From assembly GCA_963730605.1 (NCBI GenBank), contig CAVSSM010000001.1, positions 160,001-224,000 of the forward strand: DNA of 64,000 bases. Direction: 5' to 3'. Shown here in pieces: positions 49,646-50,215 of the stretch (positions within the stretch are counted from its first letter, which is position 1; the number at the start of each line of letters is the position of its first letter). Source of the stretch: an uncultured Chlamydiae bacterium (GTDB lineage: Bacteria; Chlamydiota; Chlamydiia; Chlamydiales; SM23-39). Below the pieces are notes generated by a model. It saw nothing but the letters and a program-made list of their open reading frames with translations. It was not told the origin of the DNA and ran no database searches. The position numbers were made by a program, and so were the translations under genes.

Positions 49646-49683
49646 GAGAGCTTTCAGCCAGAATTATGATTACCTCGACTTTG

Positions 49684-50215
49684 GCGCGACTGGCAGGAAT
49701 ATGACACTCAGTCACAAACAGTGAGGAGGCAATAAAACCACCAAAGCTTACCTATGCGGATCCGAGTCCGTGTAGAACTCGATCTCAGAACCCTGCGGGG
49801 GGATGCAGCTAGCTATACTGGATAACCAGTATTGACGAAGGAGCCAGGGATCGAGACTCAGGGAGGTGCCACATTTCGGCCTACATGATGCGCCAGTCCC
49901 CCAAAGTGGATGAAGCGTTGAACGGAGCAATCCGTTTCCTCTGGAACGAAACGGTTATGTCCAGAGAGACATGAGGGTGACTGGTGACATCGCCTCGAGA
50001 AAATGGTGACATATTCTGACCCAGACAGAACCCACACTAACCTACACCAGTGGGAAGCATAGTCTATAAGGCCAGTCCGAAGGGGCTATGTATACAGTGG
50101 TGAGCGCGGAACGCTCCAGTTCTTGCTCATTAGGGTTAACGAGCATGTCCGGAGGAGGCGATCGCAAGGAAAGCCAAAAGGACACACTGACATTATGAAG
50201 AGAGCAAATCTATCC
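49684..50215 (+). mobile_element. Group II intron (IIB-like) 5' fragment, domains I-III; no RT ORF body and no DV/DVI
   Basis: 5' GCGCG; gactggc pairs with gccagtc (50071); Ic1-like hairpin atactgg-ataa-ccagtat; EBS1 caaagt in a loop pairs with upstream actttg; EBS2 gaggtg pairs with tacctc; DIII-like gtcc-ggagga-ggc..gcc-aaaa-ggac. Confidence 0.78.

Follow-up and report, generated by a model that had tools for sequence, protein, structure and literature searches.

We analysed a stretch of 64,000 nucleotides from an uncultured Chlamydiae bacterium (contig CAVSSM010000001.1, positions 160,001 to 224,000; the whole stretch is called the window) and found in it the 5' part of a group II intron, which begins directly behind the first 10 nt of a terminal inverted repeat (TIR) of a miniature inverted-repeat transposable element (MITE) of family C. 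Our preferred reading, to which we give a probability of roughly 0.72, is that the intron homed into this TIR as part of a clade that exploits repeats. An intron with a CGC triad, a hairpin inserted into domain V (DV), a 6-nt exon-binding site 1 (EBS1), no EBS2 and no endonuclease would have reverse-spliced between TIR positions 10 and 11. The site would have been recognized by pairing of EBS1 with intron-binding site 1 (IBS1), of delta with delta' and of EBS3 with IBS3. As the endonuclease is missing, priming probably took place at the replication fork, by analogy with other endonuclease-less introns. A later deletion at a microhomology would have taken the reverse transcriptase (RT) gene, DV and DVI and the rest of the MITE, and a second MITE now sits at the scar, if the order of these events is read correctly. 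The clade itself would persist by fitting EBS1 and EBS3 to an abundant short palindromic repeat of its host, be it a MITE end, a repetitive extragenic palindrome (REP) or a REP doublet (REPIN). Such a repeat would offer, on either strand, tens to hundreds of intergenic positions where insertion does no harm.

The intron fragment and the repeat at its 5' end

Matches to the fragment were found in 8 of 400 other genomes of the phylum, including one 25-nt chance match (L014). The relatives are 65-73% identical to it from intron base 1, all start with GYGYG, and run on into an RT open reading frame (ORF) and DV-DVI. The GCGCG start at 49684, named in the original prediction, is present as claimed. 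A consensus fold of 14 5' halves yielded DI, DII and DIII, with both sides changed in 84 of 110 pairs. From homologs and fold, we conclude that the DNA from 49684 to about 50214 is a real, dead group II intron fragment that comprises the 5' part, DI-DIII. A covariance-model search, set beforehand as a check, gave no match of any Rfam group II model in the window or the fragment. Rfam also missed 10 of 10 relatives (E 1), and two of two controls of another intron class did match. Because intact members are missed too, the missing match does not refute group II identity, which stands through the homologs; it is a limit of the model library and not of group II membership.

To locate the target-reading elements, every alignment column was scored for complementarity to true versus permuted exons in 15 members of the clade (two of 17 were omitted because of short flanks). 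For exon positions -6 to -1 there was one dominant peak, at 49902 (5.6 of 6 pairs versus 2.5; z 8.7). The hexamer CAAAGT found there lies in a hairpin loop and is the exact complement of 49678-49683, both as originally proposed. In 14 of the 15 members EBS1 is preceded by C; the remaining one (L251) has T, together with A at the position of G49878, and thus a compensatory delta-delta' pair. The proposed EBS2, GAGGTG at 49863-49868, had to be given up. It did not covary with exon positions -13 to -8 (z 1.3, 15 members), and five of its six bases are paired in the basal ID helix, with compensatory changes. No column rose above z 3.7 as EBS2 across five exon windows between -14 and -7. For EBS3, column 49980 was Watson-Crick complementary to the first 3' exon base in 9 of 12 members (z 3.4), with three of the 3' exons borrowed from siblings in the same genome. 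A49980 predicts T as first base of the 3' exon, which is base 11 of the TIR, as in the empty MITE. In the window copy, EBS3 is likely, although not certainly, at this position.

Table 1. Positions of the intron fragment, its elements and neighbouring features in the window
Feature	Position	Strand	Basis or remark
Upstream gene, AAA_14 + DUF4143 ATPase	48395..49645	+	strand of the intron
Intact, empty MITE C, 165 bp	41428..41592	.	reference for the target; target duplication ATTAT
ATTAC, probable left 5-bp target duplication of the receiving MITE C	49669..49673	+	
First 10 nt of the MITE C TIR = 5' exon	49674..49683	+	IBS1 = 49678-49683
5' fragment of group II intron, branched-DV clade	49684..50214	+	homologs, consensus fold
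DI	about 49690-50024	+	consensus fold
5' strand of basal ID helix, contains GAGGTG	49857..49872	+	pairs with 49983-49999
delta' (G)	49878	+	pairs with delta C49901
EBS1 (CAAAGT)	49902..49907	+	dominant peak of column scan
Predicted EBS3 (A), coordination loop	49980	+	covariation; loop opposite delta'
DII	between DI and DIII	+	consensus fold
J2/3 AGC	50142-50144	+	consensus fold
DIII	about 50145-50185	+	consensus fold
First ~25 nt of DIV	end of fragment, to ~50214	+	alignment of relatives
CTATC microhomology at putative deletion of RT ORF, DV-DVI and rest of MITE C	50210..50214	+	
Second MITE (family D)	50215..50337	.	

MITE C starts with CTCGAC, has TIRs and no ORF, and is present in many copies, frequently truncated or invaded. 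Within the host family, 26 of 103 genomes contain it, and its target duplication is 5 bp in 17 of 27 paired ends. With this duplication, the bounds of the intact copy, first given as 41425-41596, were corrected to those in Table 1. That the 5' flank of the intron matches the TIR holds for nucleotides 1-10, and the 'ta.' before CTCGAC, which had been counted in, is flanking DNA. The TIR match reaches 4 nt past IBS1 and ends at the outer edge of the MITE. The TIR 10-mer occurs 72 times in the source assembly (G000), 59 times followed by TACA; shuffled 10-mers averaged 4.3 occurrences. Two of 61 other TIR ends are likewise preceded by ATTAC. A search for an autonomous transposon that carries the MITE C termini found none. 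Two 22-bp palindromes in G000 (C2:69113-69134 and C9:161428-161449) consist of two MITE C termini and nothing else, and the one on C9 retains a 5-bp duplication. An insertion sequence (IS) bounded by CAGGG and coding for a transposase of ~370 aa, with ends and transposase that we take to be ISAs1-like, lies twice inside MITE C (C1:446919-448335 and C3:22954-24135), once near each MITE end and with 10-bp duplications.

Intron homology stops at about 50214. CTATC is common to the intron end and to a paralog of the downstream DNA near 51674, and one relative has TTCTATC at the corresponding intron position. In the MITE D copy the first 4 nt and ~54 internal nt are missing, and TATC, a 4-bp duplication, stands on either side; five other MITE D copies start with GAGCC. 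The copy is dead, as originally proposed, but removal of the RT by the second MITE does not fit, because the break lies at CTATC and not at the end of MITE D. The simplest reading would be a deletion at this microhomology, with MITE D lying at the scar. In low-depth contigs of sequencing runs the MITE D junction remained unbridged. Further downstream are decayed duplications: a 500-bp paralog pair at 85% (50337-50849 and 51674-52216) and one of three copies of the same piece of an MBL-fold hydrolase gene (43360-43708, 47767-48108 and 50758-51106), two of which are truncated. Upstream, the ATPase gene stops 38 nt before the intron and would be a possible source of read-through transcription into it. 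The dead window copy itself carries no functional weight.

A clade with a branched domain V

Seventeen RTs form one monophyletic clade (support 0.994) among 84 related RTs, in a tree without named class references. The RT of member L045 scored 402 bits against TIGR04416 (cut-off 300) and contains RVT_1 and GIIM, with no endonuclease domain. The best identity of plasmid RTs to the clade was 42%. In all 17 aligned 3' ends, the triad of DV is CGC, and a 6-bp hairpin inserted in the 3' strand displaces the strand opposite the triad. The hairpin is paired in 100% of the cells, four of its six pairs are compensatory, and the DV structure scores above all 500 shuffles and slid controls. Among relatives and remnants, 17 yielded DV with the catalytic triad and DVI with a bulged A, paired in 95% of the cells; both domains are absent in the window copy. 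The neighbouring RTs in the tree that were read have a plain AGC DV. The clade introns start with GYGYGA and end with CUUACC-N-N-CU, the 3' end being fixed by a tandem repeat around member L131.

We compared these features with the described classes. The class C (IIC) boundary GUNYGCCNRGCAUGG ... CCUACYCGAU (PMC4028801) was not matched. Nor does the shortened EBS1 of class C fit a clade with a mean of 5.6 of 6 pairs, and the class C stem-loop directly before the insertion is present in 5 of 19 members and not in the window. The absence of EBS2 is shared with class C. Against classes D, E and F speak the lack of a covarying EBS2-IBS2 pairing and, in all 17 ends, the hairpin inserted into a DV that is unbranched in these classes. 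We regard it as an even bet that the clade is an undescribed group II class, invisible to Rfam, with a DV hairpin beside the catalytic triad and a 7-base code re-aimed at the MITE ends, REPs or REPINs of each new host, which would place a strategy shared by a whole lineage next to the known use of fixed homing sites, terminators and attC. Because of the extra DV hairpin, surveys based on Rfam miss the clade. Its members may be among the introns noted as unclassified in PMC3552965 or PMC4028801.

Genome G127 contains 15 DV matches, and this multi-copy spread suggests recent mobility, as far as sequences can tell. In another genome, member L259 (G256:C1:899500-903300) is interrupted within DI; the inserted DNA opens with a tRNA-like stretch and contains pieces of other mobile genes.

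Repeats as probable targets and the competing explanations

The evidence that repeats are the target comes mainly from the relatives. The 5' exon of each of 11 chlamydial members was counted in its own genome, with backward-read sequences and other genomes as controls; metagenome members were left uncounted, and G199 and G264, which have 3' ends only, stand outside the 11. In 9 of the 11 members the 5' exon is a repeat of the host with 11-254 copies (G000 72, G252 60, G239 41, G230 32, G347 40, G256 254, G127 236 for two members, G201 11), and backward-read controls gave 0-5. For comparison, ~2% of the positions in G000 have a 13-mer with at least 10 exact copies, a measure that differs from the 1-mismatch patterns used for the exons. 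The closest relative, in G252, is placed at the outer edge of a MITE of ~178 bp that has 60 copies there and 0-1 in four other genomes. G127 harbours three clade members (L017, L241-L258, L288, L289, L009), two of which entered one REP doublet (the 236-copy REPIN) at different positions and on different strands; for one of them all eight 5' ends found follow the REP. Members L131 and L240 occupy cognate sites inside repeats, and in each case the two junctions can be seen; the tandem repeat around L131 displays the empty site, and L128 and L132 split a short palindrome. The original idea of an intron that parasitises an abundant palindromic repeat is thus supported, mainly through the relatives and less through the window copy. 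The identity of the intron, EBS1, the DV hairpin and the repeat nature of the exons are shown by these data; retargeting of EBS1 and EBS3 would be the adaptive step behind them.

Several observations weigh against homing into the MITE. The runner-up column for EBS3, 49919 (8 of 12 members), predicts A as the next exon base. The exon patterns (11-17 nt, 0-1 mismatch) were chosen by eye. The repeat of L009 has two copies in its own host and 94 in G239, and L011 gave 14 matches versus 6 in controls. The source assembly, which is 83% complete, holds no full-length copy of the window intron; the fragment is single-copy there, so that a single 5' end is available, and its 3' junction is lost. The window intron was found in none of 102 other genomes of the host family, and the junction of TIR and intron gave no match in metagenomes. 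Two 3' remnants of the clade with intact ends in G000 (C9 and C1:722k) are followed by A and not by TACAA, against the predicted 3' exon starting with tacaa. Outside the assembly, and in favour of homing, run X4 of another study contained a contig of 151 nt in which nearly the same intron start stands behind an identical 15 nt, with different sequence beyond them on the upstream side; another of its contigs covers EBS1 and has two differences elsewhere. Since the ATTAC flank is common to both, the X4 copy may be the same insertion event, rearranged. Runs X1-X3, all of one study that is possibly the source itself, were excluded from support.

Searches for further copies were of limited yield. 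A 19-nt intron-start pattern matched 70 loci over the genome contigs, four of them real and none additional. TIR followed by GYGCG was found at 16 places in 103 family genomes, intron-related in G000 (2) and G434 (3) and by chance in the rest. The DV pattern was absent from viral contigs. Remnants of the clade in G000 comprise the 3' end on C9, for which six congeners contained no empty allele, and one on C7 that is cut by a MITE C. The DVI of a branched-DV intron also appears as a perfect ~40-bp palindrome at C1:722314-722358 and C1:718738-718769 (L265, L306, L307), in paralogous intergenic regions, and looks like a product of template switching. G000 further carries an intact group II intron of another class in three near-identical copies (C1:286k, C4:1-2k and C8:30k; L001-L003), with a 442-aa RT, an AGC triad and unrelated flanks; their EBS1 pairs fully with one of the three flanks.

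Location in repeats could also arise with no adaptation at all, if an intron with a 7-base code inserts at many places, selection removes the insertions in genes and repeats make up much of what remains. That this process accounts for everything is improbable, but it is the most serious competitor. In G000, TACA follows 63 of the 1351 IBS1 hexamers, and among the perfect IBS1+IBS3 sites outside long ORFs, 57 of 158 (36%) are MITE C TIRs. Because of this share, the window copy by itself argues weakly for MITE targeting, which also counts against homing. About 40 more tolerated sites lie in another repeat. This family, with 40 sites in G000 (e.g. C1:25695), ends in a perfect IBS1+IBS3 site when read outward; none of its sites is occupied. 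In G127 the REP makes up 236 of 661 seven-base IBS1+IBS3 sites, and most of the others would be genic; the upstream hairpin, moreover, is not needed. We conclude that survivorship contributes to the location in repeats. However, it leaves unexplained why a member-specific EBS1 fits a host-specific repeat in 9 of 11 cases versus the ~2% background, which was taken with a different measure. At the level of lineages it merges with homing into repeats, as only EBS1 variants that match a repeat can multiply.

Less probable still is that a MITE end was joined to an intron from another ACTTTG site, by the shared 6 nt or by a template switch. This rearrangement is retained mainly because of a second, unrelated group II intron remnant, of another class, at the same TIR. 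It lies at G000:C1:400625-401241 (L119, L207; minus strand) and starts at C1:401230, at TIR position 12, one base further in than the window intron, although its EBS1 fits the flank poorly (4 of 6 paired, two of them wobbles). Owing to this misfit, we set the remnant aside as additional support for TIR targeting. It is interrupted by an intact MITE C and ends in another MITE C end. G434 contains mini-palindromes (C7:3570-3616, L118; C166, L206) that consist of the MITE C TIR and the 10-21 first bases of a C1:401230-type intron, and these, like the frequent truncation and invasion of MITE C, would be expected from such joining. The palindrome on C7 has a 5-bp target duplication, as if a mobile mini-MITE had captured the intron end. 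The window copy looks different, as its EBS1 pairs perfectly (6 of 6) and its predicted EBS3 fits the next MITE base. The same junction recurs in run X4, and in L131 and L240 both junctions can be inspected at cognate sites.

Very unlikely, finally, is a IIC-like mechanism in which a DNA stem-loop upstream of IBS1 is required and repeats are targeted as hairpins: the CGC triad, the J2/3 AGC, the missing EBS2 and an RT whose best PDB matches include GsI-IIC resemble IIC, but a strong hairpin within 40 nt upstream (z -3 or lower) is present in 5 of 19 members and also in 2 of the 6 flanks taken as controls from another intron class, is absent at the window site and at L009, L010, L011 and L045, and the insertions are in 5' arms, 3' arms and ends of the repeats. 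A cruciform of the whole element may nevertheless play a role.

Relation to known introns and significance

Recognition of repeats by EBS1 and EBS3 thus remains the reading we prefer, and its consequences would reach beyond the window. If a clade repeatedly shifts its aim to small dispersed palindromes, the survival of an intron with a short code through host jumps would be explained, and REPs and MITEs would become the hosts of a hyperparasite. DV is the most conserved part of group II ribozymes, and here a conserved hairpin is added beside the catalytic triad. An intron with ~7 paired bases and hundreds of neutral sites might also serve as a multi-copy insertion tool. MITEs and REP doublets appear as landing pads for other elements too, since MITE C was entered twice by an IS; in the present case the invader is a retroelement that would use RNA-DNA pairing.

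The CGC triad of the clade is a feature of IIC introns. In the accessible text of one review among PMC4424553, PMC4028801 and PMC3753933, it is attributed to 'some introns' only. The clade shares with class C, whose introns target terminators and attC sites, as far as the available parts of these sources go, the missing endonuclease, the missing EBS2 and an intergenic position near inverted repeats. It differs from class C in its full 6-nt EBS1, its boundary consensus at both ends, the DV hairpin and the lack of a stem-loop requirement. Classes E and F and groups g1-g4 likewise have an RT-X protein without endonuclease and a IIB-like DI with EBS1 and coordination loop, whereas EBS2 covaries in E and F (accessible parts of PMC3552965 and PMC3753933). 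The g1-g4/F list, in the part available to us, contains no Chlamydiae and full-length proteins of 381-522 aa (PMC3552965); the clade was compared with it without named reference proteins.

It is well established that such introns insert into IS elements and behind terminators (excerpts of PMC12584367 and PMC8632793), and the part of a 2015 review at hand distinguishes three target specificities of bacterial group II introns (PMC4424553). Homing into MITEs is not mentioned in the accessible portions of PMC4853749 and PMC6542083. We found no paper on lineages that home into REPs, REPINs or MITEs or on insertions in a bacterial DV, in a search that left most subscription journals outside.

The closest published parallel is RmInt2, a class D, IIB intron of Sinorhizobium meliloti that homes into the inverted repeats of ISRm17 and thereby doubles its sites (available text of PMC4615759, also for the comparison that follows). 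The original suggestion that the intron gains two sites per repeat copy matches this published logic. Like the window clade, RmInt2 has no endonuclease, inserts in terminal inverted repeats, finds two sites on opposite strands per element and has relaxed specificity. It differs in that its target is an autonomous IS, that EBS2 is used and that a single intron is concerned. In the present clade a non-autonomous MITE would be the target, EBS2 shows no covariation, DV carries a branch, and the relatives fit different families of MITEs, REPs and REPINs. The strategy of targeting repeats would thus extend a published one, and the new part would be its combination with a branched DV in a clade that Rfam does not see.
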